The notes: generated from the letters alone by a model not told the origin. Shown: positions 867-51,100, counted from the stretch's first letter. The stretch: DNA of 64,000 nt from Candidatus Doudnabacteria bacterium (GCA_037200925.1 JBBCGO010000001.1:696235-760234), one strand, 5' to 3'. Translations and numbers: made by a program.

Positions 867-902
867 TACATACTTATAGACAAACCTCCTTTGAGTTTGC
901 TG

Positions 903-2690: not shown

Positions 2691-2886
2691 ATCGGCTCTC
2701 CTCTTGCGAAACGAGTTGATGTTGATCGCCTTGCGGCGAGATGTAAATTCGAAAGAACAATTGGTCTTACTGAGACCATCGTGGAATCAATCAGCTTAAA
2801 TCCATAATGCTCGCAGTAAAAAGAGATGGGAGAGAGCAAGGACATCATGTCCATGAACTCTCTCCCTAACTTGCTTGAACGAATAG

Positions 2887-3375: not shown

Positions 3376-3439
3376 GTGATTGTCTCCATAGAAGGTGAGT
3401 CGATCCCGGCTGCTTTTTGTGGCAGCCGGGTAGGATGAT

Positions 3440-5837: not shown

Positions 5838-6047
5838 CCTTGTGGTTCCTTTCGAGGAAACGGTTGTGTATGTGGAAAGACCGGAATCGGTCTGTAAATA
5901 AGTAGCTATTCAAGTTGTAAAGAACAGGCCTCCTTAAACAAAAACGGCAAGAGATTATCTTGCCGAAAAGCTTACCGAAACAGTTCCTGTAGGCTATTCG
6001 GAAAGACAAAAAAATGAACAGGGATTTATTATTAAAGTAACTTTAAA

Positions 6048-23075: not shown

Positions 23076-23104
23076 TTGACAAGTACGCTTAAATTTGCTA
23101 TAAT
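23076..23104 (+). promoter_or_regulatory. consensus sigma70-type promoter heading the surface-protein locus
   Basis: Perfect TTGACA (23076-23081), 17-nt spacer, perfect TATAAT (23099-23104). Confidence 0.6.
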
Positions 23105-23278: not shown

Positions 23279-23458
23279 ATGTCTTTTGAGGAACTGCCAG
23301 AGCTTCTGACGATCCGCGAGGTGACTCATTTGCTGAATGTTCATCCGAATACCCTTCGGAATTGGGAAAAAGAAGGGCTGATTAATGTTGTCCGGATCGG
23401 TCCCAGAAAAGACAGGCGATATGAGAAGCAGGTTATCAGGAAAATAATGCGGCCGTAA
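23279..23458 (+). CDS. small HTH DNA-binding protein, excisionase/MerR-like HTH_17 family (59 aa); absent from ORF track
   Basis: LLTIREVTHLLNVHPNTLRNWEKEGLINVVRIGPRKDRRY matches the HTH_17 pattern. Its stop lies 3 nt before the ATG of the giant gene. Confidence 0.6.
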   Translation: MSFEELPELLTIREVTHLLNVHPNTLRNWEKEGLINVVRIGPRKDRRYEKQVIRKIMRP

Positions 23459-23461
23459 AAT

Positions 23462-26400
23462 ATGAGCCAAAATAAAATCAAAATTTTAGCGCTCAAAGTC
23501 ACCATAAGTATTTTAATACTTGGTTTTGTCGCACCTGATATTTTTCCGATCCAGGCTTATTTTATTCCTATTGCACAGGCTGCAACGGGTGTGCCGAAGG
23601 CATTTAGCTATCAAGGCCGTTTAACCGATTCAACCGGCGCACTGCTGGGGGGAGCGGGAACTAACTATACTTTTAAATTTTCCATTTGGGACAGTGCCAC
23701 GCCTCCCGGTGGGACACGGTTGTGGCCAGCAAGCCCGCCCGGTTCTGTAACGCTTAATGTTACCCAAGGAGTGTTCAACGTAAATATTGGAGATACGGCG
23801 CATGGTTATCCGGATGCGCTGACATTTGATTTCAATTCCACCGATACGGCATATCTGCAAGTCGAAGTTTTAAATCCTGCTACCTCCACGTACGAAACTT
23901 TATCACCGCGGCAATTGATCGCATCTTCGGGCTATGCGATCAATGCCGGGACAGCTACTGCCTTGCAGACAGCTCGGAATATAAACGGCGTACCTTTCAA
24001 TGGCACAGCGGATATTACTATCCCTTCCAATACAGACGCCGGAGCTTTAACCGGTACGACCCTGGCCGCTAATATAGTTAATTCATCTTTAACTTTGGTG
24101 GGACACCTGGTTTCAGGCACGCTCATCGGCACTCAGACTTTTACCAACAACAATATTTCTGACAGCGGAGGACTCACAATCGACTCGGGTGGCGCTTTGA
24201 ATTTAGGCACATCTACTTCGACCAGTGTTTCGATTGGCAAAACAGGAACCGTCACCACGATTAATGGTTCTCTGACGATCCCGAACTACATTGACTTCAC
24301 TAACTTAACCGCACCTGCCTACAAGGAGGGCCGATTATTCTACGATCCTGTCAGCAAGTCTTTATCTTTCTACAACGATCTCAGTGGGCTTAGTTTGCAT
24401 ATTGGTCAAACACTCTGGACACGTGTAAAAAATGTAACAGGTGCAACAATTCCCAAAGGTTCATCCGTATATTTTAGCGGTGTTGACGCATTTGGTTTTC
24501 CAACAGTTGCTAAAGCCCAGGCAAACAGTCCCGTAACTACCCAATCAGCAGGAGTTACAACCCAGGATATTCCGAACGGAGCTTATGGTTATGCCACCGG
24601 CGTCGGTTTGGTTGAGAACCTTGATACCTCAGCATTCACCGCGGGTGACCGGCTTTTTCTGTCGCCTACAACACCCGGCGGGTTTGTAACAACCCAGCCT
24701 GCTGCTCCGTTTTTTTCAATGCCTATTGGACGGGTCATAAAATCTGATGCTGTCTCAGGTAGTATTGAAGTTGTCGCTACTCCATTCACCATCGGTGCAT
24801 TTACCTCCGGTTCAATGATATTTGCAAGCCCATTAGGTTTGACGGCCCAGGATAATGCCAATCTGTTCTGGGACAATGCAACAAAGCGCTTGGGCATCGG
24901 TGACAATACGCCTGCGGCAACTCTGACCATCGGCAACGGCACAGCCGGCAGCGGTCTGTTTGAAGTGTTCGGGGCCAACGGCAATGTCACGACGCAAGGC
25001 GATATTACTTTGGCAAACGGAGGAGGCAGCATCACCGCAACAGGCGGCGGTCTGACATTAGTTGGCGGAGCGGCTTCCAATCTTTCAACTACGGCTGGCA
25101 ATATTACGTTGCAGCCTGCAGGCGCCGGAACGACTGCAAATGTACAAATTGGAGCAGGTGGGGCTGGATCAGCAACGCCAGATCTTCTGGTCGTGGATGC
25201 GAAATCATCGGCGGGTGATCCGGCCGGTACCAATGGCGCGATCTACTACAATATTGCTAATAACAGATTCCGTTGTTTTGAAAATAATGCGTGGAAAGAT
25301 TGCGATTCCGTCACTGCCGCAACTTTGCAGGTCGCTTATAATAATAGCGGAGCGATTACGACTTCCGGATCCCATGATATTGCTTTCACGCTCACGTCCG
25401 GGAATTTCATCGCTTCCGGGGCTGGCTCAGTAAATCTTACTCCGACCGCTGCTTCATCTTTTACTTCCGGAGGCGCGTTAACTCTGACTGGGGGAGCGGC
25501 ATCCGCATTATCTACCACTTCCGGTGATCTTACTTTGCAAGCCGGTTCAGGTACGGTTTCCCTGGGTAGCTCGACTAATTTGACCGCAGCAACCGGCTTA
25601 ACTATCTCAACAGGATTCGGCAATATAATATTGCATCCGGCAGGAGCCGGAACAACGGCCACTGTCCAGATCGGTTCCGGCGGAGCCGGCTCTACCGCTC
25701 CTGATCTGTTTGGCGTTGACACAAAGTCAGATGCCGGAGATCCGGCAGGATTTAATGGAGCGATGTATTACAATACCAATTCCAACAGTTTCCGCTGTTA
25801 TGAAAACGGGGCATGGAAAAATTGCGATACGACAGGCGGAACTACAACATTACAATCGGCTTACAGCGCCGGCGCAACTATCACGACCGGAAGCTCAACT
25901 GATATTGTATTTACGCTCGCTTCCGGAAACTTCGATGTTTCAGGGGCCGGCTCGGTAAATCTTACACCCACAGGTAACTCCAGCTTTACTTCTGACGCAA
26001 ATTTAACACTCACTTCCGGTACGGCAACTACATGGGGCACAACTGCCGGAGATCTGACTTTGCAAGTTAACGGCGTCGGGACTACAGGCAGTGTTCATAT
26101 TGGAGCTGGAGCTCCCGGTTCCAACGGCCCTGATCTGTTCGGCCTTGATGTGAAATCAACAGCCGGCGATCCGGCCGGGTATAATGGAGCGATGTATTAC
26201 AACGGCTCATCAAACGTTTTCCGTTGTTTTGAAAATGGAGCATGGAAAGATTGCGGTGCGACGGGAAGCGGAGGAGGATTGTCACTGCAGCAAACGTACA
26301 TAAATGGTCCAACTATTACTACGACCGCGTCAACTGATCTGGCTTTGATCCTTGCTTCCGGTGATTTCACAGCCTCGGGAGCCGGTTCGGTAAATCTTAA

Positions 26401-29400
26401 CCCGACAGGTGCTTCCAGTTTTACTTCCGGCGGAGCATTAACGCTTACCGGCGGAGCGGCATCTGTTTTCGGAACGAGTGCCGGAGATCTGACTTTGCAA
26501 GCTGCCGGAAATGGAACTACGGCAAATGTTCATATTGGCGCAGGAGGTGTCGGGTCCGCCACGCCGGATCTGCTTGCTTTGGATGTGAAATCTACAAGCG
26601 GAGACCCGACCGGTGTCAACGGGTCAATGTACTACAATGCGAGTACAAACAGGTTCAGATGTTATGAAAATAACGCTTGGAAAGATTGTGATATCAGCGG
26701 TACTGATACTTTGCAAACTGTTTATAATAATGGCGCAACTATTGTTACAGCCGGTTCCGTTCCAATCACGTTTAATCTTGCGTCGGGAAATTTTAATGTC
26801 TCCGGCGCAGGGTCTGTAAATCTGACCCCAACCGGAGCGTTAACGCTCACCGGAGGCGCTGCGTCAACATTCTCAACAAGTTCCGGCGCGCTCACAATCG
26901 ACTCAGCAGCTACTTTGAATTTAGGCACCACTAATGCCACCGGAGTCTCCATCGGTAAAACAGGAACTGTCGCCACTGTGAACGGTTCGCTTACGATACC
27001 AAATTACATTGATTTTACGAACACGGTAAAGCCGCCGTATTCTGAAGGCCGAGTTTTTTATGACACAACTGACAAGACTCTTGCATATTATAATGATGCC
27101 TCTAACAGTACGCTGAACATCGGTCAGGAAGAATGGATCCGTGTTAAGAACATTACCGGCACCGATATTGCCGATGGCAAAGTAGTATATATTAGCGGTT
27201 CCTCAGGAGGCATACCGACAGTTGCGTTGGCCAGGGCTGATAGTCCAACTACTTCTCAGGCGGCCGGCATCACAACTAATGCGATTCCCAACGGCAGCAT
27301 CAGTTATATTACTAATTTTGGATTAATTCATAAGGAGAATACCGCGTCGTTCAGTGCGGGAGACCAAATATTCCTTTCAGCCACATCTGCGGGTGATTAC
27401 ACGGCCACCAGGCCCTCTTCCCCGAATCTTACGGTAAAACTTGGTTATATCGCAGTGTCAGATTCAACTTTAGGCATTGTTCTGGCAAATATCGCGCCAG
27501 CGCCGTTTCAATCTGGAATTTTAGGTACCGGCAGTATCCCGTTTGCCAATTCCAGCGGCCTGTTGATTTCAAATAACAACAATTTATTTTGGGACCAGGT
27601 AAATAACCGTCTCGGTATCGGTGACAATACGCCCGCAGCAACTCTGACCATCGGCAATGGCACACCCGGCAGCGCCTTGTTTGAAGTTTTTGGGTCAACT
27701 GGAAATATAACGACGAAAGGGGATATTAATTTGGCTGCCGGCGGTACTATTACAGGTACCGGTCCTTTGGCCATTACTGCAACTGGAGCAAATGCTCTAA
27801 CTTTAGATACAGGAACTACGGGTACAATCAATATCGGTACCGGGATTTCTGGCAAAACTATAAATATTGGCACAGACAACACCGCTGCTGATACGATTGT
27901 CATCGGTTCTTCTCTGGATACTCTTAAACTGGGAAAGTTCAATACGGCTAACGCCATTATCTATACTGCGAATGGAACTACCGATGGCACTCTGGCCTCA
28001 ATAGCCAACGGTACGACAGGGCAATGTTTGGTAGCCACCACAGGGCTTGCCCCTGCTTGGGGAACGTGTCCTGCAGATGCAAGTGCTCTTACAGGAACCA
28101 CTCTTGCAGCCAGTGTAGTTAATTCTTCCTTAACATCAGTTGGAACGTTAACAGGCCTGACCGTCACTGCTCCCATCATAGGTTCTATCACTGGTTCCTC
28201 CGGTTCTACTACCGGCAATGCTGCAACTGCCACCACTCTCGAAACTGCCAGACTCATCAACGGAGTATCATTCAACGGTTCTGCTGACATCACGGTAGCT
28301 GCCGATGCCGGCACTCTGACCGGAAACACTCTTGCTGCGAATGTGGTTAATTCATCTTTAACTTCAGTCGGACCCTTAACAGGTCTTACTGTCATTGCTC
28401 CTATTGCCGGCAGCGTCACCGGTTCAGCCGCCACTGTTACAGATGCTGCACAACCGGCTATTACTTCCGTCGGAACGTTAACAGGTCTTACGGTAACAGC
28501 GCCGATAGTTGGAAGTGTGACAGGAAGTTCCGGTTCTACCACAGGCAATGCTGCTACTGCTACAAAGTTGGAAACGCCTCGTCTCATCAACGGAGTTGCT
28601 TTTGACGGCTCAGCAGATATTACGATCACTGCCGTTGCTGCAGCAGGAACTCTGACAGGTACAACCCTTGCAGCCAATGTGGTTAATTCTTCCTTAACAT
28701 CTGTAGGAACATTGGCAGGATTGACTGTCACAGCTCCGATAGTAGGAAGTGTTACTGGTTCCTCCGGTTCTACCACAGGCAATGCGGCTACAGCTACCAC
28801 TCTTGCAACCCCAAGACTAATCAACGGGGTATCCTTCAATGGTTCTGCCGACATCACAGTTACAGCAGCAGCAGGAACTCTGACAGGAACAACCCTGGCA
28901 GCAGGAGTCACAGCTTCATCTCTAACATCTGTAGGAACATTGGCAGGCTTGACTGTCACAGCTCCGATAGTAGGAAGTATCACAGGCAATGCGGCAACAG
29001 CAACCACTGCTACTTCTGCCACCAACCTTGCCGGAGGCTTGGGAGGCCAGATCCCTTACCAATCAGCTGCAGGAACAACAGCATTCTTAGCCAATGGTAC
29101 TGCAGGACAAGTTCTTCAAAGCAACGGCACAACCCTGGCTCCTACTTGGGTTGCAGCTGCTACCGGAACACTGACCGGATTATCGGTTGTATCAGCAAAT
29201 GGTTTTGCCGGATCTTCCAGCGGCGGCACCACCCCTGCTATTACTATCTCAACCACGATCACAGGATTACTAAAGGGGAATGGAACAGCCATATCTGCTG
29301 CCACAGCAGGCACTGATTATTCCCTGGGAACCTCTGCTTTAGCCACCGGTATCTTAAAGAGCACCACCACTACAGGGGCATTAAGTATTGCAGTGCCGGC

Positions 29401-32400
29401 GGACTTCCCGGTATTGAACCAGAACACTACTGGCTCTGCCGCAACATTAACAACCCCCCGCCTAATCAACGGGGTATCCTTCAATGGTTCTGCTGACATC
29501 ACAGTTACAGCAGCAGCAGGAACTCTGACAGGAACAACCCTGGCAGCAGGAGTCACAGCTTCATCTCTAACATCTGTAGGAACATTGGCAGGCTTGACTG
29601 TCACAGCTCCGATAGTAGGAAGTATCACAGGCAATGCGGCAACAGCAACCACTGCTACTTCTGCCACTAACCTTGCCGGAGGATTAGGAGGCCAGATCCC
29701 TTACCAATCAGCTGCAGGAACAACAGCATTCTTAGCCAATGGTACTGCAGGACAAGTTCTTCAAAGCAACGGCACAACATTAGCTCCGACTTGGGTAGTT
29801 CCAAGTTCAATAGCAGCAGCAGGAACTCTGACAGGAACCACTCTTGCAGCCAATGTGGTTAATTCATCCTTAACATCTGTAGGAACATTGGCAGGCCTTA
29901 CTGTCACAGCTCCGATAGTAGGAAGTATCACAGGTTCCTCCGGTTCTACCACAGGCAATGCTGCTACAGCTACCACTCTTGCAACCCCCCGCCTAATCAA
30001 CGGGGTATCATTCAACGGTTCTGCCGACATCACAGTTACAGCAGCAGCAGGAACTCTGACAGGAACAACCCTGGCAGCAGGAGTCACAGCTTCATCTCTA
30101 ACATCTGTAGGAACATTGGCAGGATTGACTGTCACAGCTCCGATAGTAGGAAGTATTACGGGGAATGCCGGGAGTGCGACCAAGCTAGCAACACCTCGCC
30201 TCATCAACGGAGTTGCTTTTGACGGCACTGCCGATATTACAATCACCGCAGCTGCGGCAGCTGGTACTCTGACCGGCACTACTCTGGCTGCCAATGTGGT
30301 CAACTCGTCCTTAACCTCAGTAGGAGCTTTGGTTTCCGGAACACAGATCGCTTCTCAAACGTTTACCACCAACAACATTGCAGACTCAGGAGCCTTGACC
30401 ATAACTTCAGGGGGAGCTGGCAATTTGGCGCTCAACTCTGCTTCAGGCATAGTGACTTCCAACGGCACAACCGTAACATTGGGAGGCTCAGCCACCATCA
30501 ACGGAGGCAATGCCGCTGCCGGCACCTTAACCTTAGTCTCCACTACCAATGGCACTAAGGGTGATATTCAATTTTTCTCATCCGCTAACAAGATTACTTC
30601 AGCCGGCGCTCTGACCATTGCCGGACCAATAGTTGCTTCCAACTTCACCGGCACATTGACCGGCACCAACACCGGAGACCAGACCATAACCTTAACCGGA
30701 GATGTCACCGGATCAGGCACCGGTACATTTGCCGCTACGATTGCCCCGAATGCTGTGACGACAGGTAAGATCCTTGACGGTACAATTTTAAATGCTGATC
30801 TTGCTAATTCAACAATAGGATTGCTTATTGGTACATCTGGAACAGATGTAGGCGTAACGGGTTCTCCCGCATCACTTGGGGGCAGCCTTACCCTCAATAT
30901 TCCAAACGCCTCCGCAACCAACCGTGGAGTGCTTACCGCAGCCGACTGGGCAGCGTTTAATTCTAAACAGGCAGCTTTTGGATATACGCCGGAAGATGTT
31001 GCTAATAAATCATCAAATGTCAATCTTGGCACTTCCAATATTTTATATCCAACTCAAAATGCGGTAAAAACTTATGTTGACAATCTTACCACTGGCCTCA
31101 TTTGGCAAAACCCGATAGAAAATGCCGGCGTTATTGCCGATACGGCAACTCCGGTCGGATCTCCAGTGAGCGGTGATTCTTACATAATTAATACCGGCGG
31201 CAATACCGGCGTTTGGGCGGGTTTCAGTGCCGGGGACCTGGTCCAGTACCAAGGGACTACATGGGTAAAGGTCAAAAGTCTTGTGGTCGGAGACCGCTTT
31301 GGCGTGAGTTTCTTGTCTCCGACAGTTCCATCCGGAGCCATGACAGGAAAAAGTGACAACCTGGTACAAGTCAGCGGCGGAACTCCCGGCGCATTTACGT
31401 ATACCTTTATCGCCCCAGTAAACAACTATGCAGTGTTTGATCAAAATCCAAACAGTATGAATTACGGAGTGTCCTTCACTTATACCTCATCACTCGGAGA
31501 ATGGGTTGCGCTTTCCGCAAATACCAGATTATCGGCAGGCAACGGTCTGCAAACGGTCGGAACTACCGTAAGTTTAGGAGCCTTGACTGCGGACTGGAAC
31601 CAGACAGGTGTGTTCAATATCAACACCGCAGGCAATGTCAATGTTAACGGCGGAACCCTTGGCACAACAGCATTAACCGGGAATCTTTTTAATACTACAG
31701 CGACAACTTTAAATATTGGCGGAGCTGCGACGAATATTGTCTTGGGAGCCGCAGGCGCAACCCTTACAGGGGGCGGAGCGCTTACTATCAGTTCAGCTCC
31801 AACGACTGCTTTAACTCTTGATTCCGGCACCACCGGAACCGTTAACCTTGCCACAGGCAATAATGGCAAGACCGTCAACATCGGCACCGGTACTTCCGGA
31901 GATATTATTAACATCGGTACGAATAATACAACTGCCGACACCATCTCTATCGGCTCTGCTCTTGATTCACTTAGTATCTCGTCGGCTCACTTTACAGCCA
32001 CCTCAGCCGGAGCGTTGACCATTTCCGGAGCTTTGTCTGCCTCCAACTTCTCCGGCAGTTCATCCGGCACAAACACCGGAGACCAGACTTCTGTTTCCGG
32101 CAATGCCGGTACGGCAACAGCCCTTCAAACACCTCGAGCTATTAATGGAGTAAATTTTGATGGAACTGCTCCGATTACCATCACGGCCGCTGCCGGAACC
32201 TTAACCGGGACCGTCCTGGCTGCCAATGTAGTTAACTCTTCTCTAACATCAGTAGGAACCTTAGCAGGCTTAACTGTCACAGCTCCGATAGTAGGAAGTA
32301 TCACAGGCAATGCGGCTACTGCTACCACTGCTACTTCTGCCACTAACCTTGCCGGAGGATTAGGAGGACAGATCCCTTACCAATCAGCTGCAGGAACAAC

Positions 32401-35400
32401 AGCATTCTTAGCCAATGGTACTGCAGGACAAGTTCTTCAAAGCAACGGCACAACCCTGGCTCCTACTTGGGTTGCAGCTGCTACCGGAACACTGACCGGA
32501 TTATCGGTTGTATCAGCAAATGGTTTTGCCGGATCTTCCAGCGGCGGCACCACCCCTGCTATTACTATCTCAACCACGATCACAGGATTACTAAAGGGGA
32601 ATGGAACAGCCATATCTGCTGCCACAGCAGGCACTGATTATTCCCTGGGAACCTCTGCTTTAGCCACCGGTATCTTAAAGAGCACCACCACTACAGGGGC
32701 ATTAAGTATTGCAGTGCCGGCGGACTTCCCGGTATTGAACCAGAACACTACTGGCTCTGCCGCAACATTAACAACCCCCCGCCTAATCAACGGGGTATCC
32801 TTCAATGGTTCTGCTGACATCACAGTTACAGCAGCAGCAGGAACTCTGACAGGAACAACCCTGGCAGCAGGAGTCACAGCTTCATCTCTAACATCTGTAG
32901 GAACATTGGCAGGCTTGACTGTCACAGCTCCGATAGTAGGAAGTATCACAGGCAATGCGGCAACAGCAACCACTGCTACTTCTGCCACTAACCTTGCCGG
33001 AGGATTAGGAGGCCAGATCCCTTACCAATCAGCTGCAGGAACAACAGCATTCTTAGCCAATGGTACTGCAGGACAAGTTCTTCAAAGCAACGGCACAACA
33101 TTAGCTCCGACTTGGGTAGTTCCAAGTTCAATAGCAGCAGCAGGAACTCTGACAGGAACCACTCTTGCAGCCAATGTGGTTAATTCATCCTTAACATCTG
33201 TAGGAACATTGGCAGGCCTTACTGTCACAGCTCCGATAGTAGGAAGTATCACAGGTTCCTCCGGTTCTACCACAGGCAATGCTGCTACAGCTACCACTCT
33301 TGCAACCCCCCGCCTAATCAACGGGGTATCATTCAACGGTTCTGCCGACATCACAGTTACAGCAGCAGCAGGAACTCTGACAGGAACAACCCTGGCAGCA
33401 GGAGTCACAGCTTCATCTCTAACATCTGTAGGAACATTGGCAGGATTGACTGTCACAGCTCCGATAGTAGGAAGTATTACGGGGAATGCCGGGAGTGCTA
33501 CTACTGCTACCAACGCTACTAATACCGGAATAACAGATGATACTACTACCAATGCATCGGTATATCCGACCTGGGTAACTGCTAATACAGGAAACCTGCC
33601 TCAAAAAGTTTCTTCAACCAAACTTTTCTTCAACCCTTCTACCGGGTTATTAACTTCTACAGGATTTGCAGGGCCTCTAACAGGAAATGTAACCGGTAAT
33701 GTTACTGGTTCCTCCGGTTCTACCACAGGCAATGCTGCTACAGCTACCACTCTTGCCACCCCCCGCCTAATCAACGGGGTATCCTTCAATGGTTCTGCTG
33801 ACATCACAGTTACAGCAGCAGCAGGAACTCTGACAGGAACAACCCTGGCAGCAGGAGTCACAGCTTCATCTCTAACATCTGTAGGAACATTGGCAGGCTT
33901 GACTGTCACAGCTCCGATAGTAGGAAGTATCACAGGCAATGCGGCAACAGCAACCACTGCTACTTCTGCCACTAACCTTGCCGGAGGATTAGGAGGCCAG
34001 ATCCCTTACCAATCAGCTGCAGGAACAACAGCATTCTTAGCCAATGGTACTGCAGGACAAGTTCTTCAAAGCAACGGCACAACATTAGCTCCGACTTGGG
34101 TAGTTCCAAGTTCAATAGCAGCAGCAGGAACTCTGACAGGAACCACTCTTGCAGCCAATGTGGTTAATTCATCCTTAACATCTGTAGGAACATTGGCAGG
34201 CCTTACTGTCACAGCTCCGATAGTAGGAAGTATCACAGGTTCCTCCGGTTCTACCACAGGCAATGCTGCTACAGCCACTGCTTTGCAGACACCACGAGCT
34301 ATTAATGGAGTAAACTTCGATGGCACTGCTCCGATTACTATCACAGCGGCAGCAGGCACATTAACAGGAGCTACATTAGCAGCCAATGTACTTGCCTCGT
34401 CCTTAACATCCGTAGGAACACTTACGAGTCTTTCTACTTCCGGCCAGATCACATCAAGTCTTGCGACAGGAACTGCACCATTTATCGTCGCCTCCACTAC
34501 AAATGTTGCCAATCTAAATGCTTCTTCTTTGAACGGCGCAACCTTTGCCGCTCCAGGAGCCATCGGAAGCGGAACAGCCAGCACCGGGGCTTTCACCGGA
34601 CTTACTCTAGCTGGTCTTGCCGGCAACAACGCCGTGCTCTATGCCACAACCGGCACTGGAGTTGTAGCAACAGCTCCTACTTCTACCGCAGGCTTATGTT
34701 TAACCTCCGGAGCTGGGGCGGGATTTGTTCCTGTTTGGGCCGCTTGCGGCGGAGCAACTCCTACATTACAAACAGTTTATGCCGCGGCTTCCGGCAACAC
34801 CATTACTACTACTGATGCCAGAAACATTGCTTTCACTTTTGCTGATACCGCTACTGACCAATCCTTGACCTTAACTCAGCAGGGAACTGCTCCTTCCTTG
34901 ATCGTGGATGATACCAATGCCGGCACCAACACTGCCATAGACATCAGATCAGGCGGAGCGACCAAGCTGACTATTAATGAGCTGGGAACTATCTCTACTT
35001 CGGGAAACATTACAGTCAGCGGCACCGGCACCATTACCTCCGCAGGATTAGTTACAGCATCAGCCGGCCTAACTGTTACGACCGGAGATCTGGCTATCAC
35101 CGGCGGCAACTTATCCTTGGGCGGCACACAAAGGATCTCCAATGCCGGAGTGGGAGCGTTCATCACCGGCACAACAATCGGCTCCATGACTTTTACTACA
35201 AACAACATCGCAGACTCAGGAGCATTAACTATCAAATCGGCCGGCACTAATCCTTTAACCTTAGACTCGGGTACTACCGGAACAATTAATATTGGCACGG
35301 GTACTGCAGGCAAAACCATCAACATTGGGACAGACAATACAACTGCCGACACGATTGTCATTGGTTCTCCTTTAGATACCATAAGACTTGGCAAGTTTTC

Positions 35401-36895
35401 AGCAGTGAACGGAGTATTGTATGTGGACAATGCCAATGGCAATGTCTCTGAAACTGCCGCTTCAACAGGTATTCAATGTTTGCAAACTTCCGGCGTCGGC
35501 ACAGCTCCGATCTGGGGAGCTTGCGGTGGCGGCGGGACTCTGCAAGCAGCTTACAACTCAGGAAATACAATTCTGACCACAGCTGCCAGCAACGTTACTA
35601 TTACGGATATTGCCGGGACTCAACTCGCGGTGAATATGAATGGTGGAGTTGCTCCGACAGTTGATATGGTTAACATTTCAAATGCCACTGGCGTCACGAC
35701 TGCGGGTGTCAGCGGTTTGCAGATCACTTATCTGGGAGGCGCGGCAGCGGTGGAAGCTTCCGGGGAACGAATTGATATTACTGGAGGTACTACGGCGGGC
35801 GGCATTTGGAATGGATTGAGACTGACACAGGGAACGGTTACGCCCGGTATAACGGTCCAGGATCTTAAATTGGAAACAGCGACACTGACTCAATCTACAG
35901 CTGCAACAACGAATATTAACGGCTTGAATTTGGGTGTAGCCGGAGCTTTAGTTCAACAGACTTTGGCTGGTGCAATCAACTGGGACGGCTTAAATATTAC
36001 TACTCCCGCTTTAACAGAGACAACGGGAACCGTGATTGCTAATGGCTTGAATATAACTCCTGGTTCAGCCGGGGTGGGAGCCGAGCTGAACGGTATTAAT
36101 ATAGGCAACTCTGCCGGGGGCGCATCTACCCAGGAATCAGCAATTAAAGTAGGTACCGGTTGGGACAATATTCTCAGCAGCCCTAATGCATCGATAACGG
36201 GAGCAGGCGCCATGACAGTCACTTCTTGTACCGGTTGCGGAACCTTGATCGGAGTACAGACGTTCGTCAACGGCAACGTTACATACACAAAAACAGCAGG
36301 AACAACCAATGCGATCATTGAACTCTGGGGTGGCGGCGGCGCTGGCGGCAGCTGTACAGCCGTAGCCGGATGCGCAGCTGGCGGCGGAGGCTCCGGCGGT
36401 TACGCGCGATATTACTTTACTGGTATGGGGGCCGGACCTTTCACAATCGCTGTGGGTGCTGGTGGAACTGCTGTCGCTGGAGCCACGGGTAATACCGGAG
36501 GCATAACCACATTCAACACAGGCGTAACCACAATAACTGCAAACGGCGGCTTGGGTGGAACAACGGCGGCAGGCACTGCAGTTATTAAATATGTGGCAGG
36601 TGGAGCAGGAGGCGGTATTTCCACAAACGGCACAGTGAACCTTGCCGGCGCTCCGGGAGGCTCAGGCATGACCAGTACTGTTGTCACAACAGAATCATCA
36701 GGATTTGGTGGGTCAACATCTCTTGGCGGCGGCGGTGTAGCAGTTACAAATAATATTGGCGCAACAGCGCTAGCCGGTATTGCGGCAATTGCAAATACAG
36801 GGTCCGGCGGTTCGGGCGCAGCAACAGGCACAACAACATTGGCAACAGGAGGGGCGGGAGCCGGGGGCAGAATCATTATCTATGAGTTCAGATAA
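23462..36895 (+). CDS. giant (4477 aa) repetitive Thr/Gly/Ala/Ser-rich extracellular protein; putative fibrous surface or adhesin-like protein
   Basis: Uninterrupted 13.4-kb ORF. N-terminal hydrophobic signal/anchor. Almost no charged residues. Nested repeats and Cys-pair modules. Gly-rich C-terminal domain. Confidence 0.85.
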   Translation: MSQNKIKILALKVTISILILGFVAPDIFPIQAYFIPIAQAATGVPKAFSYQGRLTDSTGALLGGAGTNYTFKFSIWDSATPPGGTRLWPASPPGSVTLNVTQGVFNVNIGDTAHGYPDALTFDFNSTDTAYLQVEVLNPATSTYETLSPRQLIASSGYAINAGTATALQTARNINGVPFNGTADITIPSNTDAGALTGTTLAANIVNSSLTLVGHLVSGTLIGTQTFTNNNISDSGGLTIDSGGALNLGTSTSTSVSIGKTGTVTTINGSLTIPNYIDFTNLTAPAYKEGRLFYDPVSKSLSFYNDLSGLSLHIGQTLWTRVKNVTGATIPKGSSVYFSGVDAFGFPTVAKAQANSPVTTQSAGVTTQDIPNGAYGYATGVGLVENLDTSAFTAGDRLFLSPTTPGGFVTTQPAAPFFSMPIGRVIKSDAVSGSIEVVATPFTIGAFTSGSMIFASPLGLTAQDNANLFWDNATKRLGIGDNTPAATLTIGNGTAGSGLFEVFGANGNVTTQGDITLANGGGSITATGGGLTLVGGAASNLSTTAGNITLQPAGAGTTANVQIGAGGAGSATPDLLVVDAKSSAGDPAGTNGAIYYNIANNRFRCFENNAWKDCDSVTAATLQVAYNNSGAITTSGSHDIAFTLTSGNFIASGAGSVNLTPTAASSFTSGGALTLTGGAASALSTTSGDLTLQAGSGTVSLGSSTNLTAATGLTISTGFGNIILHPAGAGTTATVQIGSGGAGSTAPDLFGVDTKSDAGDPAGFNGAMYYNTNSNSFRCYENGAWKNCDTTGGTTTLQSAYSAGATITTGSSTDIVFTLASGNFDVSGAGSVNLTPTGNSSFTSDANLTLTSGTATTWGTTAGDLTLQVNGVGTTGSVHIGAGAPGSNGPDLFGLDVKSTAGDPAGYNGAMYYNGSSNVFRCFENGAWKDCGATGSGGGLSLQQTYINGPTITTTASTDLALILASGDFTASGAGSVNLNPTGASSFTSGGALTLTGGAASVFGTSAGDLTLQAAGNGTTANVHIGAGGVGSATPDLLALDVKSTSGDPTGVNGSMYYNASTNRFRCYENNAWKDCDISGTDTLQTVYNNGATIVTAGSVPITFNLASGNFNVSGAGSVNLTPTGALTLTGGAASTFSTSSGALTIDSAATLNLGTTNATGVSIGKTGTVATVNGSLTIPNYIDFTNTVKPPYSEGRVFYDTTDKTLAYYNDASNSTLNIGQEEWIRVKNITGTDIADGKVVYISGSSGGIPTVALARADSPTTSQAAGITTNAIPNGSISYITNFGLIHKENTASFSAGDQIFLSATSAGDYTATRPSSPNLTVKLGYIAVSDSTLGIVLANIAPAPFQSGILGTGSIPFANSSGLLISNNNNLFWDQVNNRLGIGDNTPAATLTIGNGTPGSALFEVFGSTGNITTKGDINLAAGGTITGTGPLAITATGANALTLDTGTTGTINIGTGISGKTINIGTDNTAADTIVIGSSLDTLKLGKFNTANAIIYTANGTTDGTLASIANGTTGQCLVATTGLAPAWGTCPADASALTGTTLAASVVNSSLTSVGTLTGLTVTAPIIGSITGSSGSTTGNAATATTLETARLINGVSFNGSADITVAADAGTLTGNTLAANVVNSSLTSVGPLTGLTVIAPIAGSVTGSAATVTDAAQPAITSVGTLTGLTVTAPIVGSVTGSSGSTTGNAATATKLETPRLINGVAFDGSADITITAVAAAGTLTGTTLAANVVNSSLTSVGTLAGLTVTAPIVGSVTGSSGSTTGNAATATTLATPRLINGVSFNGSADITVTAAAGTLTGTTLAAGVTASSLTSVGTLAGLTVTAPIVGSITGNAATATTATSATNLAGGLGGQIPYQSAAGTTAFLANGTAGQVLQSNGTTLAPTWVAAATGTLTGLSVVSANGFAGSSSGGTTPAITISTTITGLLKGNGTAISAATAGTDYSLGTSALATGILKSTTTTGALSIAVPADFPVLNQNTTGSAATLTTPRLINGVSFNGSADITVTAAAGTLTGTTLAAGVTASSLTSVGTLAGLTVTAPIVGSITGNAATATTATSATNLAGGLGGQIPYQSAAGTTAFLANGTAGQVLQSNGTTLAPTWVVPSSIAAAGTLTGTTLAANVVNSSLTSVGTLAGLTVTAPIVGSITGSSGSTTGNAATATTLATPRLINGVSFNGSADITVTAAAGTLTGTTLAAGVTASSLTSVGTLAGLTVTAPIVGSITGNAGSATKLATPRLINGVAFDGTADITITAAAAAGTLTGTTLAANVVNSSLTSVGALVSGTQIASQTFTTNNIADSGALTITSGGAGNLALNSASGIVTSNGTTVTLGGSATINGGNAAAGTLTLVSTTNGTKGDIQFFSSANKITSAGALTIAGPIVASNFTGTLTGTNTGDQTITLTGDVTGSGTGTFAATIAPNAVTTGKILDGTILNADLANSTIGLLIGTSGTDVGVTGSPASLGGSLTLNIPNASATNRGVLTAADWAAFNSKQAAFGYTPEDVANKSSNVNLGTSNILYPTQNAVKTYVDNLTTGLIWQNPIENAGVIADTATPVGSPVSGDSYIINTGGNTGVWAGFSAGDLVQYQGTTWVKVKSLVVGDRFGVSFLSPTVPSGAMTGKSDNLVQVSGGTPGAFTYTFIAPVNNYAVFDQNPNSMNYGVSFTYTSSLGEWVALSANTRLSAGNGLQTVGTTVSLGALTADWNQTGVFNINTAGNVNVNGGTLGTTALTGNLFNTTATTLNIGGAATNIVLGAAGATLTGGGALTISSAPTTALTLDSGTTGTVNLATGNNGKTVNIGTGTSGDIINIGTNNTTADTISIGSALDSLSISSAHFTATSAGALTISGALSASNFSGSSSGTNTGDQTSVSGNAGTATALQTPRAINGVNFDGTAPITITAAAGTLTGTVLAANVVNSSLTSVGTLAGLTVTAPIVGSITGNAATATTATSATNLAGGLGGQIPYQSAAGTTAFLANGTAGQVLQSNGTTLAPTWVAAATGTLTGLSVVSANGFAGSSSGGTTPAITISTTITGLLKGNGTAISAATAGTDYSLGTSALATGILKSTTTTGALSIAVPADFPVLNQNTTGSAATLTTPRLINGVSFNGSADITVTAAAGTLTGTTLAAGVTASSLTSVGTLAGLTVTAPIVGSITGNAATATTATSATNLAGGLGGQIPYQSAAGTTAFLANGTAGQVLQSNGTTLAPTWVVPSSIAAAGTLTGTTLAANVVNSSLTSVGTLAGLTVTAPIVGSITGSSGSTTGNAATATTLATPRLINGVSFNGSADITVTAAAGTLTGTTLAAGVTASSLTSVGTLAGLTVTAPIVGSITGNAGSATTATNATNTGITDDTTTNASVYPTWVTANTGNLPQKVSSTKLFFNPSTGLLTSTGFAGPLTGNVTGNVTGSSGSTTGNAATATTLATPRLINGVSFNGSADITVTAAAGTLTGTTLAAGVTASSLTSVGTLAGLTVTAPIVGSITGNAATATTATSATNLAGGLGGQIPYQSAAGTTAFLANGTAGQVLQSNGTTLAPTWVVPSSIAAAGTLTGTTLAANVVNSSLTSVGTLAGLTVTAPIVGSITGSSGSTTGNAATATALQTPRAINGVNFDGTAPITITAAAGTLTGATLAANVLASSLTSVGTLTSLSTSGQITSSLATGTAPFIVASTTNVANLNASSLNGATFAAPGAIGSGTASTGAFTGLTLAGLAGNNAVLYATTGTGVVATAPTSTAGLCLTSGAGAGFVPVWAACGGATPTLQTVYAAASGNTITTTDARNIAFTFADTATDQSLTLTQQGTAPSLIVDDTNAGTNTAIDIRSGGATKLTINELGTISTSGNITVSGTGTITSAGLVTASAGLTVTTGDLAITGGNLSLGGTQRISNAGVGAFITGTTIGSMTFTTNNIADSGALTIKSAGTNPLTLDSGTTGTINIGTGTAGKTINIGTDNTTADTIVIGSPLDTIRLGKFSAVNGVLYVDNANGNVSETAASTGIQCLQTSGVGTAPIWGACGGGGTLQAAYNSGNTILTTAASNVTITDIAGTQLAVNMNGGVAPTVDMVNISNATGVTTAGVSGLQITYLGGAAAVEASGERIDITGGTTAGGIWNGLRLTQGTVTPGITVQDLKLETATLTQSTAATTNINGLNLGVAGALVQQTLAGAINWDGLNITTPALTETTGTVIANGLNITPGSAGVGAELNGINIGNSAGGASTQESAIKVGTGWDNILSSPNASITGAGAMTVTSCTGCGTLIGVQTFVNGNVTYTKTAGTTNAIIELWGGGGAGGSCTAVAGCAAGGGGSGGYARYYFTGMGAGPFTIAVGAGGTAVAGATGNTGGITTFNTGVTTITANGGLGGTTAAGTAVIKYVAGGAGGGISTNGTVNLAGAPGGSGMTSTVVTTESSGFGGSTSLGGGGVAVTNNIGATALAGIAAIANTGSGGSGAATGTTTLATGGAGAGGRIIIYEFR
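24850..26700 (+). repeat. four in-frame copies of a ~145-175-aa module ending in DPAG-NGA-YYN...FRC-EN-AWK-C (conserved Cys pair)
   Basis: RFRCFENNAWKDCD, SFRCYENGAWKNCD, VFRCFENGAWKDCG and RFRCYENNAWKDCD at about 25261, 25790, 26218 and 26653. Confidence 0.7.
28950..30180 (+). repeat. ~1.2-kb intragenic segment, copy A, near-identical to 32270-33500
   Basis: Antisense ORFs 29116..29313 = 32437..32634 and 29317..29667 = 32638..32988 are identical. Offset is 3321 nt (1107 codons). Confidence 0.8.
32270..33500 (+). repeat. ~1.2-kb intragenic segment, copy B of 28950-30180
   Basis: See copy A. A ~230-nt Thr-rich subunit recurs at least 6 times at >95% identity across 28.7-34.3 kb. Confidence 0.8.
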
Positions 36896-36897
36896 AA

Positions 36898-39489
36898 ATG
36901 ACGGAGAGAAAAACCAAATTAATATTAATAGCAGTTATTTCTGCAGGAATATTCGGAGTCGGATTTTATTTTCTTGCGTTGCCTCATCTCAATTTGAATA
37001 AAACGGCAACTACTGTAACCAAGTTGTTTGGCTCAGTATTTCCGACGCCTAAATTCCCTTCAACCGGAACGATAGAAACGCCGGTTGAAGGAACTCCCAC
37101 CGCAGTAACACCTGATGTAAACACTCCGGCTGCAGGAACATCTGCCGGTACGACACCAGCTATTGTAATACCACTTGCAACTAGACAAGCATTTGCGAGA
37201 CCGATCACCGATACGACACCACAATTGCTCGGCAAGACAATATTTAGAAAGAAAGACCAGGCGACGATACCGGTTCATCCTCGTTTCAAGAACGGTAATA
37301 CAAATATTGCTTTTTATGCATTGTGTCCGACCGTGGCTTGTCCTGCCGTCGGTACCACGGCTTCACCCAAGTATAATTTTTTTGCAGAAGATACAACTAC
37401 CGGTGATCAACCGTTTTCAAATTATTGGACTCCTGACCCTTCTTTTCATAAAATTGTAGTAGTAGAATATGTTAATGATAATCACCAATTTACGTGTTCG
37501 GATCTTAGCTTAGATCAGTGTATTGCCAATCGACATTTCATCAGTCAAACTTCTATACAACTTGTAGATGACAATGCGATAACTTTTCATATAATTACGC
37601 TCGTTGAGAACGGGACCGACGGTACGGCCGTTCCTTCTGACTTTATGGTTCACGTCAAGAATGCCGGTGCGGATGTTGCAGCAAGTCCTGCATCCGGAAC
37701 GGCAGTATTACCGGGAACTTTATATACACTTTCTGCCGGCACCTATGCTGTCAGTGAGGATGCAAATGCTCTTTACACCCAAAGCTTCAGCGGGGATTGT
37801 GATTTGACCGGCGGCATTACTCTGGTGGCAGGGGATGACAAGACATGTACCATCACCAACACTTTCGGTCCGCCGGTGACAACAACGGCCACCCTGCACG
37901 TCATTAAACAGGTTAATAACAGTAGCGGCGGCACGGCAGTTGCTTCCGACTTTAATATTCACGTCAAGAATGCCGGAGCGGATGTCGCAGGAAGCCCGAC
38001 AGTCGGAACAGCTGCGCCGGGATCTTTATATTCACTCGCTGTCGGCATATACAACGTCAGCGAAGATGCCAACACTTCTTATACGCCAAGCTTTAGCGGT
38101 AATTGTGATATAACCGGCAGCATTACTCTGGTGGCAGGGGATGACAAGACATGTACCATCACCAACAATCAAATATCTGCAAACACGACACCGGCTGCTC
38201 TTCATGTCATTAAGCTCGTAGTTAATGGAAGTGACGGCATCGCAACTTCTTCTGACTTTAATATCCACGTAAAGAATGCAGGTGGGGATGTTGTGGGAAG
38301 TCCTGCGGTCGGAGTTGCAGCACCCGGAACTTTGTATACACTTTCTGCAGGCGCGTATGCTGTCAGTGAGGATGCGAATGCCCTATACACGCAAAGCTTC
38401 AGCGGGGATTGTGATGCTGGTGGCAATGTGACGTTGCTGGCTGGCGACAATAAGACATGTACCATCACCAACACTCAAATTTCTTCAGTACCGATAGTAC
38501 CGCCACCTGGGACGGGTACAGTTTTGGCAACACTTCATGTAATCAAACTCGTGGTTAATAGCAGCGACAGCACGGCGGTTGCATCCGACTTTAATATCCA
38601 CGTAAAGAATGCCGATGTGGATGTGCCGGGGAGCCCGGCAGTCGGGGCTGCGACGCCCGGAACTTCTTATTCTCTCTCTCCCGGCACGGTTGTAATAAGC
38701 GAAGATGCCAACATCGCTTATGTACAAAGCTTTAGCGGGGATTGTGATTCGACCGGCAATATTACGCTGTCGGTTGGCGACGACAAGACATGTACGATTA
38801 CCAACACCAATATTTCTGTTCCGGTACCTACCCCTATTCCCGAGCCCACCCCAACTCCAACTACCTCGCCAGACACCACAGCACCGGTCATCATACTTAT
38901 TGGCGATCCAACGATTAATCTAAATGTCGGCGACACATATATAGAACAAGGTGCTACCGCAACAGATGATGTCGATAGCTCGGTTGCAGTTGTGGTCAGC
39001 GGGACTGTGGACACATCTACAGCCGGTACTTATATAATTCACTACAACGCCACAGACGCTGCCGACAACCCTGCGACCGAAGTTACCCGAACGATCAATG
39101 TAGCCGAATCAGTCCCAGCTTTACCCAGTACGGGATCGGGTCCTCTTATGCTAAGTAATTCATCAGGTATTATTATACTGAATGTGATCCTCGGGATAAT
39201 TTTGGCTTCGCTTGTTTTCTTGTTTATAAGGAAACGCAGGGGTAGCCCGGTTGTTAAACAGGATCAGCAAATAGACAGCACCGCGATTAGTTCTGCCCCA
39301 ACTGCACTCGTCGGGCGTAATAATCCCGAACAACCCACAGCGTCAGGGGATCATACAAGCACCGGCAATAATCAGATCGATAAGCCGCCGATCCAGACCC
39401 CCACCCCAGAGCCTACTCCGCTCCCAGCACCAAAAATAACTCCCGAACCTACACAGCCGGAAAACAATGATAAGGAAGTTTTGAAATAA
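36898..39489 (+). CDS. cell-surface repeat protein with Ig-like (DUF5011-like) domain and LPSTG sorting-signal-like motif
   Basis: N-terminal TM/signal. Five tandem ~100-aa repeats. Ig-like segment (PVIILIGDPTINLNVGDTYIEQGATATDDVDSS...GTYIIHYNATDAADN). LPSTGSG, a hydrophobic stretch and RKRRG, followed by an unusual ~100-aa Pro/Thr-rich tail. Confidence 0.75.
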   Translation: MTERKTKLILIAVISAGIFGVGFYFLALPHLNLNKTATTVTKLFGSVFPTPKFPSTGTIETPVEGTPTAVTPDVNTPAAGTSAGTTPAIVIPLATRQAFARPITDTTPQLLGKTIFRKKDQATIPVHPRFKNGNTNIAFYALCPTVACPAVGTTASPKYNFFAEDTTTGDQPFSNYWTPDPSFHKIVVVEYVNDNHQFTCSDLSLDQCIANRHFISQTSIQLVDDNAITFHIITLVENGTDGTAVPSDFMVHVKNAGADVAASPASGTAVLPGTLYTLSAGTYAVSEDANALYTQSFSGDCDLTGGITLVAGDDKTCTITNTFGPPVTTTATLHVIKQVNNSSGGTAVASDFNIHVKNAGADVAGSPTVGTAAPGSLYSLAVGIYNVSEDANTSYTPSFSGNCDITGSITLVAGDDKTCTITNNQISANTTPAALHVIKLVVNGSDGIATSSDFNIHVKNAGGDVVGSPAVGVAAPGTLYTLSAGAYAVSEDANALYTQSFSGDCDAGGNVTLLAGDNKTCTITNTQISSVPIVPPPGTGTVLATLHVIKLVVNSSDSTAVASDFNIHVKNADVDVPGSPAVGAATPGTSYSLSPGTVVISEDANIAYVQSFSGDCDSTGNITLSVGDDKTCTITNTNISVPVPTPIPEPTPTPTTSPDTTAPVIILIGDPTINLNVGDTYIEQGATATDDVDSSVAVVVSGTVDTSTAGTYIIHYNATDAADNPATEVTRTINVAESVPALPSTGSGPLMLSNSSGIIILNVILGIILASLVFLFIRKRRGSPVVKQDQQIDSTAISSAPTALVGRNNPEQPTASGDHTSTGNNQIDKPPIQTPTPEPTPLPAPKITPEPTQPENNDKEVLK
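37560..38830 (+). repeat. five tandem ~300-nt coding repeats (each with Cys pair SG.CD...KTCTITN)
   Basis: LHVIK..VN.S.G.A.ASDFNIHVKNAG.DV.GSP.VG.AAPG.LY.L..G.Y.VSEDAN..YT.SFSGDCD..G.ITL.AGDDKTCTITN repeated five times. Confidence 0.7.
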
Positions 39490-39568: not shown

Positions 39569-40114
39569 ATGCCAAATGAAATAGATACTCCACCAGCAGG
39601 TGGAAGCACTCCTACACCAACTCCGGCTCCGAGCGAGCCGATACCAGGCGGTGTTAATCGCTGGCGCTGGGCGAACTGGACAACCAAAGCCGTAATGACT
39701 TTGGCAGTCTTACTGCTTTTAGGAGCAGTTGGAACCGCAGGATTTTTTTATAAGCAGTTGACGGATATTAAGAAAGACCCAAACAAGGTGGCTGCTGATG
39801 AAACTAATGCCACTATCAGTGCAATTGGCAAATTGATAGTTTTGCCGACCGATGAACAGCCAACGCTGGCGACCGTAACCGATCCGAGCAAACTTGCGGA
39901 TCAGCCGTTCTTTGCTTCCGCCAAAATGGGCGATAAGGTTTTGATCTACACCAATGCCAAGAAAGCCATCCTATACGATCCTGTCGCTAATAAGATCGTG
40001 GAAGTAGCGCCGATCAATATCGGCAATACTGCCGCGGCTCCAAGTGCCGTATCCGGCGCTTCAACTGACGCTTCAAAAACCTCCGCACCCGCAACCCAAA
40101 CCCCAAAGAAATAA
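39569..40114 (+). CDS. membrane-anchored protein, unknown function
   Basis: Pro/Thr-rich N-terminus, one TM helix, extracytoplasmic domain. Confidence 0.5.
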   Translation: MPNEIDTPPAGGSTPTPTPAPSEPIPGGVNRWRWANWTTKAVMTLAVLLLLGAVGTAGFFYKQLTDIKKDPNKVAADETNATISAIGKLIVLPTDEQPTLATVTDPSKLADQPFFASAKMGDKVLIYTNAKKAILYDPVANKIVEVAPINIGNTAAAPSAVSGASTDASKTSAPATQTPKK

Positions 40115-40192
40115 AAATAGAAGAAATAGCAAACAGTAAGAAATAAATAGAATAAAACCCAGGTATGAGCCAGGGTTTTATTTTGCTATACT

Positions 40193-41548: not shown

Positions 41549-41549
41549 T

Positions 41550-49640: not shown

Positions 49641-51100
<1,460 letters not shown>

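Follow-up and report, generated by a model that had tools for sequence, protein, structure and literature searches.

A 4477-residue protein of Candidatus Doudnabacteria with a MAT-like head, phage tail-fibre modules and a glycine-rich tip: a probable cell-attached fibre

Patescibacteria, the candidate phyla radiation (CPR), account for a large share of bacterial diversity, and the Candidatus Doudnabacteria bacterium studied here is ultra-small and probably symbiotic. To our knowledge, all cultivated Patescibacteria live attached to other microbes, and for the way in which CPR bacteria choose and hold a host we know only of type IV pili and a few Saccharibacteria adhesins. We analysed a 64,000-nt stretch of a Candidatus Doudnabacteria genome (JBBCGO010000001.1:696235-760234, hereafter the window), in which a preliminary description had singled out one giant gene, predicted to encode an adhesin with a likeness to tail fibres. 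The gene occupies positions 23462..36895 of the plus strand and, as proposed, consists of a single open reading frame (ORF) of 4477 codons with no internal stop. Its product is recorded at NCBI as a "hypothetical protein" (MEJ0021750.1) on a 964-kb contig of the metagenome-assembled genome (MAG) GCA_037975565.1, Candidatus Doudnabacteria. The protein is a chimera, with a head like that of the mosaic adhesive trimer (MAT) fibres of Bdellovibrio bacteriovorus followed by phage tail-fibre material and a phage-type tip. The features described below that go beyond the layout given earlier are the cellular, not viral, nature of the gene, the family of its head domain with the tie to Bdellovibrio MAT, and a partner gene.

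The composition of the giant protein is dominated by Thr (17.9%), Gly (14.8%), Ala (14.0%) and Ser (9.3%). Charged residues (D+E+K+R) make up 5.9% of the whole, and their proportion falls to 0.8-3% within the repeat blocks; the protein is thus low in charge, and the earlier wording "almost devoid of charged residues" applies to those blocks and not to its full length. The sole hydrophobic stretch is N-terminal (residues ~5-36) and ends at AQA|A, which agrees with the signal or anchor suggested before. We annotated it as a signal peptide or signal anchor (aa 1-40; 23462..23581, plus strand) on the basis of hydropathy and of homologues carrying AxA-type signal peptides in the same place. All 18 Cys residues fall in nine short-range pairs, a pattern that local disulfides in an extracellular protein would produce. 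Neither an LPx[TSA]G motif anywhere in the protein nor a C-terminal hydrophobic segment was found, the chain ending in ..GRIIIYEFR. The label of sortase-anchored (LPXTG) Gram-positive adhesin, which some sources attach to relatives, was rejected since both of these anchoring features are missing.

The preliminary description had also stated that every reverse-strand frame of the gene is open for hundreds of codons. This proved true of one frame in three, with a longest run of 364 codons and 73 stops; the remaining two (longest runs of 174 and 98 codons, 212 and 398 stops) resembled a control region. GC skew is negative over the gene (down to -0.13) and positive in its flanks, and TGA trinucleotides are half as frequent in it as in the control region (10.9 versus 22.3 per 1000). 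Both observations agree with a codon bias towards Thr/Ala/Gly, and neither agrees with a strand switch.

Domain searches were performed segment by segment, as a Pfam scan of the whole 4477-aa protein returned nothing above threshold, and homologues of the giant were sought with three segments. Directly after the AQA|A site, the position taken by the conserved domain in MAT proteins, lies a head domain of ~125 aa that we call N1 (aa 41-165; 23582..23956, plus strand). N1 matched the NCBIfam model NF053851 (Bdello_MAT_N) with 39.6 bits (E 4.4e-10, profile positions 6-88), or 32.2 bits once the domain was trimmed, and 19 of 21 N1 relatives matched this model independently. These matches identify N1 as a divergent homologue of the Bdellovibrio MAT N-terminal domain, and not as a member of the curated Bdellovibrio subfamily. 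No N1 match was obtained in Pfam or PHROG, and N1 was found neither in 50,697 GenBank phage records nor in 2.9 million IMG/VR contigs.

An exhaustive search with an N1 profile returned 10,091 protein clusters at E <= 0.001, of which 519 reached E <= 1e-30. Among the 150 clusters listed, nearly all have N1 starting around residue 20-50, in proteins of 164 to 5152 aa. A search of species-representative genomes confirmed 238 loci, 80 of which were kept, and all 80 belong to Patescibacteria, in line with a Patescibacteria-wide distribution. A contig end cuts 58 of the 80; the complete ones measure 264 to 3345 aa, counted from the N1 start, and one N1-headed protein (2439 aa) is encoded in a complete chromosome. 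Mean column identity within N1 is 64%, and the sequence that follows it varies, a pattern which fits docking of N1 to a conserved component of the cell's own envelope.

Other large N1-headed proteins share essentially N1 alone with the giant, one of them (L019) adding its central domain, and no orthologous giant suitable for a comparison of repeat copy number was found among them. In many N1 proteins the C-terminus is entirely different and a domain of the partner type described below is absent, and the family includes many small forms (~300-360 aa) with no obvious binding tip. Peptidase_S74 is the intramolecular trimerisation chaperone of phage spikes. It was not detected at the C-terminus of the giant by Pfam scans of the whole protein or of its segments. 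In three N1-headed giants that were scanned, of 2264-3345 aa (L026, 10001-20035; L068, 10001-17317; L077, 10001-16792), a Peptidase_S74 domain lies ~200-290 aa before the C-terminus and is followed by a Pro/Thr/Glu-rich tail, and L026 also has four F5/8-type-C (discoidin) and Sad1/UNC-like domains. Such forms suggest a wide repertoire of tips and shafts on the same N1 head.

The shaft contains a domain that we call D1, present twice: copy 1 covers aa 255-480 (24224..24901, plus strand) and copy 2 aa 1162-1387 (26945..27622, plus strand), the two being 54% identical. A domain occurring twice had been recognised earlier, and its signature IPNYIDFTN was indeed located at aa 273 (nt 24278) and aa 1179 (nt 26996), each copy measuring ~226 aa. 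By tblastn, D1 matched annotated tail-fibre proteins of Roseobacter phage CRP-6 (43% identity, E 5e-28), Pseudomonas phage Rollin and Synechococcus phages, and metagenomic homologues were placed in P22-like and SU10-like (podophage) tail modules. One D1 homologue also matched Phage_cement_2 weakly, at 20.4 bits against a cut-off of 24. Between the D1 copies stand four ~145-aa Gly/Ala/Thr-rich modules, each ending in C-x8-C (24899..26731, plus strand), which self-comparison (family D5) and a motif census delimited. Their number is exactly that described before, with ends at aa 614, 788, 931 and 1076 (nt 25214-26689) and the motif GDPxGxNGxxYYN...FRC[FY]ENxAWK[DN]C. Homologues of the Cys module occur in further metagenomic fibre-like proteins, one of which has collagen repeats.

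The shaft also has two repeat blocks. Block I (aa 1541-2290; 28082..30331, plus strand) contains Thr-rich tail-fibre repeats of the pattern ..SSLTSVGTL..APIVGS..A.xLxTPRxINGVxFxGxAxIT.., units of the form GGQIPYQ...GQVLQSNGTTLAPTW and a ~115-aa spacer unit. Block II (aa 2843-3660; 31988..34441, plus strand) is largely a recent duplicate of block I, as positions 28916-30192 recur at 32237-33514 over 1278 nt with 98.7% identity (16 mismatches); further internal copies of 531 nt are 99.2% identical. In place of the "dozens of ~96-aa Thr-rich repeats" announced earlier, we counted 16 copies of the motif GTLTGTTLAA..SSLTSVG and 12 of A.xLxTxRxINGVxFxGxAxIT, in units of 56-80 aa (full units 72-80 aa) that are nested in higher-order blocks. 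No simple tandem array was reported by the tandem-repeat program TRF, because the repeats are composite and interspersed. Near-identical internal repeats of 0.5-1.3 kb should be good recombination substrates and might give rise to the variable length envisaged earlier.

The repeats matched PHROG tail-fibre families (phrog_20242, 9e-20; also 6722, 1833 and 454), and their profile gave a weak match to the C-terminal region of phage L Dec (PDB 6e3c, E 0.005). Pfam tail-fibre repeat models such as PF03406 (Phage_fiber_2) gave no match, either with a two-unit segment at E <= 10 or with aa 1500-1733 at E <= 1. A tblastn search of GenBank phages with the repeat block was likewise blank, probably owing to the low-complexity filter. 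The likeness to phage tail-fibre repeat proteins (lambda Stf-type proteins and the C-terminal region of phage L Dec) consists of the 12-fold motif A.kLxTxRxIxG..F.GsA.It together with the PHROG matches; unlike those repeats, the units of the giant sit inside longer composite repeats, match no Pfam repeat model and reach Dec at E 0.005.

A unique central domain (aa 2481-2700; 30902..31561, plus strand) separates the two blocks. It has a DUF2793-like core at aa ~2560-2605 that scored 23.6 bits (E 4.8e-5) against PF10983, below the gathering score of 27, and L019 contains its homologue. Between block II and the tip, a pre-tip region (aa 3661-4250; 34442..36211, plus strand) carries two C-x14/15-C motifs and matched no family in Pfam, PHROG or NCBIfam.

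The Gly-rich C-terminal block noted earlier proved to be real and identifiable. The glycine-rich tip (aa 4251-4477; 36212..36892, plus strand) lies within the C-terminal 278 aa, which matched PF21722 (Gly_rich_2) with 34.7 bits (E 2.5e-8), above the gathering threshold of 24.3; the scan of the entire 4477-aa protein did not report this family. The tip also matched phrog_863 (1.8e-19). Sequence searches of the PDB with the whole protein, the central domain and the C-terminus gave nothing meaningful, and only a tip profile, built from 44 homologues, was informative, matching the fibre of cyanophage Pam3 (7yfw/7ypx, E 6e-13), RemZ (8gl8, 1e-9) and gp33 of Mycobacteriophage Bxb1. The match to RemZ (chain D, residues 3-197) suggests that this phage-type glycine-rich domain is used by cellular proteins outside Patescibacteria too.

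The preliminary description had recommended structure prediction of the distinct domains, and for the tip this worked well: the AlphaFold2 model made with the 44-homologue alignment had a pLDDT of 92.3 and a pTM of 0.87. Foldseek ranked 7ypx first (E 5.5e-8, TM 0.64), then 9d93 (gp33, 5.8e-8), with ALK/LTK glycine-rich domains next at E ~0.02-0.1, and the model matched 239 viral structure models, named tail fibres among them, with TM up to 0.85. We are confident that the predicted fold is the beta-sandwich with glycine-rich lattice of Pam3 gp24, a phage receptor-binding type. For this TNF-like and glycine-rich unit of Pam3, recognition of the host receptor has been proposed, and its assembly involves the chaperone gp25 (PMC9608196). 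The closest relatives of the tip are small (300-460 aa) signal-anchored proteins, 60-75% identical, encoded on cellular contigs.

The tip is accompanied by a partner gene (36898..39489, plus strand; 863 aa), which begins 3 nt past the stop codon of the giant and was characterised by Pfam, hydropathy and comparison of its conserved domain. Its product has an N-terminal transmembrane segment, a ~140-aa four-Cys domain (nt 37159-37635), SpaA_2-like and Ig-like domains, a C-terminal transmembrane segment and a Pro-rich tail. The ~140-aa domain was found in the gene directly 3' of Gly_rich_2 proteins at all four small-protein loci for which DNA was at hand (L005, L007, L088 and L089), with 35-48% identity and E values of 1e-28 to 1e-32. 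Searching metagenome contigs with this domain added five loci: in three (L090, L091 and L094) a Gly-rich domain lies directly upstream, in one it is adjacent downstream, and one is cut off. The order tip then partner thus holds in the window and at seven other loci, with adjacency at an eighth. A distant Gly_rich_2 protein, on a contig that also encodes a PorP_SprF-domain protein, is without a partner gene.

At the small loci, the stretches L005 6990-9062, L007 6588-9826 and L089 3725-5747 (minus strand) adjoin the small Gly_rich_2 genes. A conserved third gene follows the pair there (L005_329, L007_331, L089_280 and L088_339, 50-77% identical), and several divergently transcribed paralogues of ~320-357 aa share the C-terminal ~160 aa of its product. 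No counterpart of this third gene was seen in the window, and the 415-aa and 333-aa proteins encoded downstream of the partner showed no similarity to the neighbours of small Gly_rich_2 proteins.

The giant gene lies in an ordinary chromosome among housekeeping genes and not in a prophage. Upstream in the window, Pfam identified FtsH, SMC, RNase Y, YmdB, NusA and ClpP, and the window also carries tRNAs, a kinase, a VWA protein, an MFS transporter and a 16S rRNA gene. NusA, ClpP and surface proteins are encoded right next to the giant gene. Among its neighbours within the 64 kb, no gene for a capsid, portal, terminase, tail or lysis protein was found, and the only PHROG structural matches among them were those of ClpP to "head maturation protease" models. 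An upstream phage structural module, suspected from ORF sizes, was discarded once Pfam had given FtsH, SMC, RNase Y, NusA and ClpP.

The closest characterised counterpart of the giant is the MAT family of B. bacteriovorus. In all 21 members of that family, the signal peptide is followed at once by a conserved domain of ~130 aa; the fibres form trimers at the cell surface, their tips are S74 or non-S74 (TNF-like in Bd2439 and Bd2734), and one fibre was shown to bind prey glycans (PMC10769870). Docking to the predator surface is the role that Caulton et al. (2024) propose for the N-domain. The giant resembles these proteins in having a signal peptide followed by a conserved beta-rich N-domain of ~125-130 aa (E 4.4e-10), a long phage-fibre-like shaft, swappable C-terminal tips and many paralogues or relatives with varied tips, and in its proposed use by a bacterium living on other bacteria. 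Tip variability is seen in that the giant ends in a non-S74 Gly_rich_2 domain and sister N1 proteins end in S74 or other sequences. The giant differs from MAT fibres in several respects. Its host is a Patescibacterium, presumably with a monoderm-type envelope, whereas MAT is found in a Gram-negative predator; it is 4477 aa long compared with about 1000 aa; its shaft consists of D1, Cys-pair modules and INGVxFxG repeats; and its glycine-rich tip and dedicated downstream partner gene are features that do not appear in the sections of the MAT paper that were searched. MAT fibres are trimers at the surface, and for the giant both properties are predicted.

The giant has the MAT architecture, in which a signal peptide and a conserved head precede a long phage-fibre shaft with a swappable tip, and we therefore read it as a very large non-S74 fibre of this type. 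On balance, we consider it probable that it is a Sec-exported, cell-attached MAT-type fibre which uses its distal glycine-rich tip to bind a target cell. The tail-fibre link made earlier gained support from four separate parts of the protein (tip, repeats, D1 and MAT-like head), and adhesin, the earlier guess, is also the best-supported function, a trimeric, cell-anchored adhesin being the most likely form. Sister proteins add to this: other giants with an N1 head have Peptidase_S74 at their end, and F5/8-type-C lectin domains occur among them.

In such a fibre, the signal peptide would move the unfolded chain over the membrane and the N1 head would remain cell-proximal, docking to a conserved envelope component. 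Some ~4000 residues of phage tail-fibre modules would build a long, beta-structured and probably homotrimeric rod, which short-range disulfides may stabilise; by analogy with the long tail fibre of phage T4, its length could be on the order of 200 nm. The glycine-rich C-terminus would form the distal tip and bind a surface molecule, probably a glycan, of another cell, plausibly the host of the presumed episymbiont. The downstream membrane protein might serve the tip extracellularly, either as a chaperone of its assembly or as a co-adhesin, an idea that we base on phage fibre genes preceding a chaperone gene, as in the gp24-gp25 pair of Pam3.

The tip and its partner were also compared with phage and cellular relatives. 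The tip is like Pam3 gp24 (7ypx, 7yfw) and the "tail wing brush" protein gp33 of Bxb1 (9d93) in sequence profile and in fold, and, like gp24 with gp25, it is paired with a second protein encoded directly downstream. Pam3 gp24, however, is a virion part of ~280 aa with a helical, baseplate-docking N-terminus, whereas the tip studied here ends an exported cellular protein of 4477 aa and its partner is membrane-anchored, with no detectable similarity to gp25. Small Patescibacteria-type Gly_rich_2 proteins (300-460 aa; P0154, P0181 and P0178) share the tip, the N-terminal signal anchor, the homologous partner gene directly downstream and the location on cellular contigs; they are without N1, D1, Cys modules and a long repeat shaft, and their N-termini carry an APNPGH.. 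motif. Giant proteins of CPR bacteria and predators (Vampirococcus, PMC8080830; preprint 10.1101/2023.11.21.568195) are comparable in being very large, predicted to lie in the membrane or at the surface, and proposed to serve host attachment. Those of Vampirococcus carry other domains (WD40, PKD, integrin, fibronectin and DUF11), and the words "tail" and "fiber" do not occur in the text of that paper (PMC8080830).

Several points weigh against the reading as a MAT-type fibre. The N1 score of 39.6 bits is below the curated NF053851 cut-off of 60, and profile searches of the PDB found no relative of N1, of D1 with the Cys module, or of the partner domain. Structure prediction, successful for the tip, was of little help for the shaft: the AlphaFold2 monomer of D1 with one Cys module had a pLDDT of 60.6, and its fold search gave no match at E <= 0.001. 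The partner domain was not found in viral contigs and has no detectable similarity to phage chaperones, and homology to gp25 or to the Tfa family was not detected; moreover, a membrane-anchored partner that accompanies the tip could indicate that the fibre is anchored by its C-terminus. An intertwined homotrimeric beta-helix/prism shaft like that of MAT would draw indirect support from the tail-fibre repeats and from the S74 domains of sister proteins. While the ORF with its cellular setting, the homologies of N1, D1, repeats and tip, the tip fold and the tip-partner gene pair are observations, we infer trimerisation, the anchored end, the ligand, the role in host attachment and that of the partner; the episymbiotic lifestyle of the Doudnabacterium is presumed, and the repeat copy number comes from a single assembly.

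Of the other explanations, the one that survives best is a structural or protective envelope fibre, serving as a coat, a spacer or a decoy against phages or other cells and not as a specific host adhesin. Coat proteins that are heavily glycosylated typically have such a very low-charge, Thr/Ser/Gly/Ala-rich composition; N1-headed proteins occur in great number, many of them small and with no obvious binding tip, and in the CPR bacterium Vampirococcus a fibrous surface has been attributed to giant proteins (PMC8080830). Yet the solved relative of the C-terminal domain is proposed as the receptor-recognition tip of a phage fibre, related N1-headed proteins bear lectin-type domains, and MAT, the nearest characterised family, has one member shown to bind prey surface glycans. 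We therefore regard a coat function as unlikely.

An improbable alternative retains the adhesin and reverses its orientation, with the Gly-rich C-terminus held at the membrane by the partner and N1 as the distal, functional end. The partner, with its transmembrane segments, occurs in strict linkage with the tip domain and not with N1, and N1 would have no evident membrane anchor once the signal peptide is cleaved. Phage and MAT fibres, however, are thought to dock by a conserved N-domain and to bind by a variable C-terminus (PMC10769870, PMC9608196). Conservation within N1 (64%) ahead of a variable remainder also fits docking to a self component, and the many N1 proteins that end differently have no partner domain.

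It is more improbable still that the gene is an assembly product, in which repeats were joined in frame or collapsed and the true gene is of another length or split. Assembly is difficult across internal repeats this long and similar (1278 nt, 98.7% identity; 531 nt, 99.2%), contig ends cut 58 of 80 related genes in other MAGs, and the exact protein was analysed in one contig only. On the other hand, the contig is 964 kb long, all 4477 codons are open, and ~7 kb of non-repetitive sequence flanks and separates the repeat blocks. The long repeats differ at 16 of 1278 nt, which makes them placeable, and complete N1-headed proteins of 3000-5152 aa occur in other assemblies, with one of 2439 aa in a complete chromosome. 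An assembly artefact could alter the repeat copy number and is unlikely to have created the gene. Finally, although the nearest annotated relatives of most modules are phage tail fibres, a virion component of a phage or prophage that lies in this contig by chance is essentially excluded, because the context is cellular, the protein begins with a signal peptide and not with a virion-docking domain, and N1 is missing from the phage collections searched.

The cell-attached MAT-type fibre favoured here has precedents in part. A phage-fibre-derived adhesive trimer on a bacterium living off bacteria has been known since 2024, and giant surface proteins of CPR bacteria, with other domains, have been noted before (PMC8080830). 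Our literature search found no link between MAT fibres and Patescibacteria or CPR, nor the scale of the N1 family, a glycine-rich tip on a MAT-type fibre, or the tip-partner gene pair. What the locus adds is that a Doudnabacterium carries what appears to be a fibre of the Bdellovibrio MAT type, that ~10,000 protein clusters are headed by a MAT-like domain, and that the tip, a receptor-binding domain of phage type, comes with a conserved partner gene of its own. Should this reading be correct, it would offer a concrete, testable handle on host recognition: the tip could be used as a host probe, and tip families could be compared with the phage receptor-binding proteins of candidate hosts. It would also explain why giant N1-headed genes are mostly truncated in metagenome assemblies.

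More speculatively, N1-headed, phage-fibre-derived trimers might form a general host-recognition apparatus of Patescibacteria, with lineage-specific tips, some of them exchanged with phages, on a common head, a dedicated extracellular chaperone tethered to the membrane that builds the glycine-rich tips once Sec has exported them, and recombination of the near-identical shaft repeats tuning the length. We put this forward as a long shot and doubt it in its full extent. Were it true, the tip sequence would predict the host to which an uncultured CPR bacterium attaches, and the exchanged tips would come from phages infecting the same host bacteria.

The region upstream of the giant gene contains a possible regulatory element. 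A 59-aa helix-turn-helix protein of the MerR/HTH_17 type (23279..23458, plus strand; PF13411/PF00376 matches) is encoded by a gene that stops 3 nt short of the ATG of the giant, and it may serve the fibre operon as its own regulator. A promoter-like site, TTGACA and TATAAT with a 17-nt spacer and an upstream TG (23076..23104, plus strand), lies 5' of both genes; it agrees with the sigma-70-type consensus at 12 of 12 positions, and its annotation is a consensus match only.

Beyond the partner gene, a same-strand cluster of envelope or surface proteins (39569..45179, plus strand), candidate members of the fibre system, was recognised by Pfam. It includes a 181-aa transmembrane protein, a dockerin/fn3 protein (40193-41548, plus strand) and three paralogues (41532-42779, 42757-43758 and 43755-45179, plus strand). 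The second and third of these are 71% identical, and both bear cohesin domains above the Pfam threshold. Cohesin and dockerin side by side in a Patescibacterium suggest that a modular docking system for the cell exterior is encoded next to the fibre gene.

Two further observations concern the rest of the window. The 16S rRNA gene at 49641-51099 is complete, and as no 23S rRNA gene follows in the remaining 13 kb, the two appear to be unlinked. Positions 1-6000 have a G+C content of 54-59%, compared with 45-50% in the remaining window, and carry minus-strand genes for a protein kinase, a VWA-domain protein and a zinc-ribbon protein; this part may be a foreign or compositionally distinct island.

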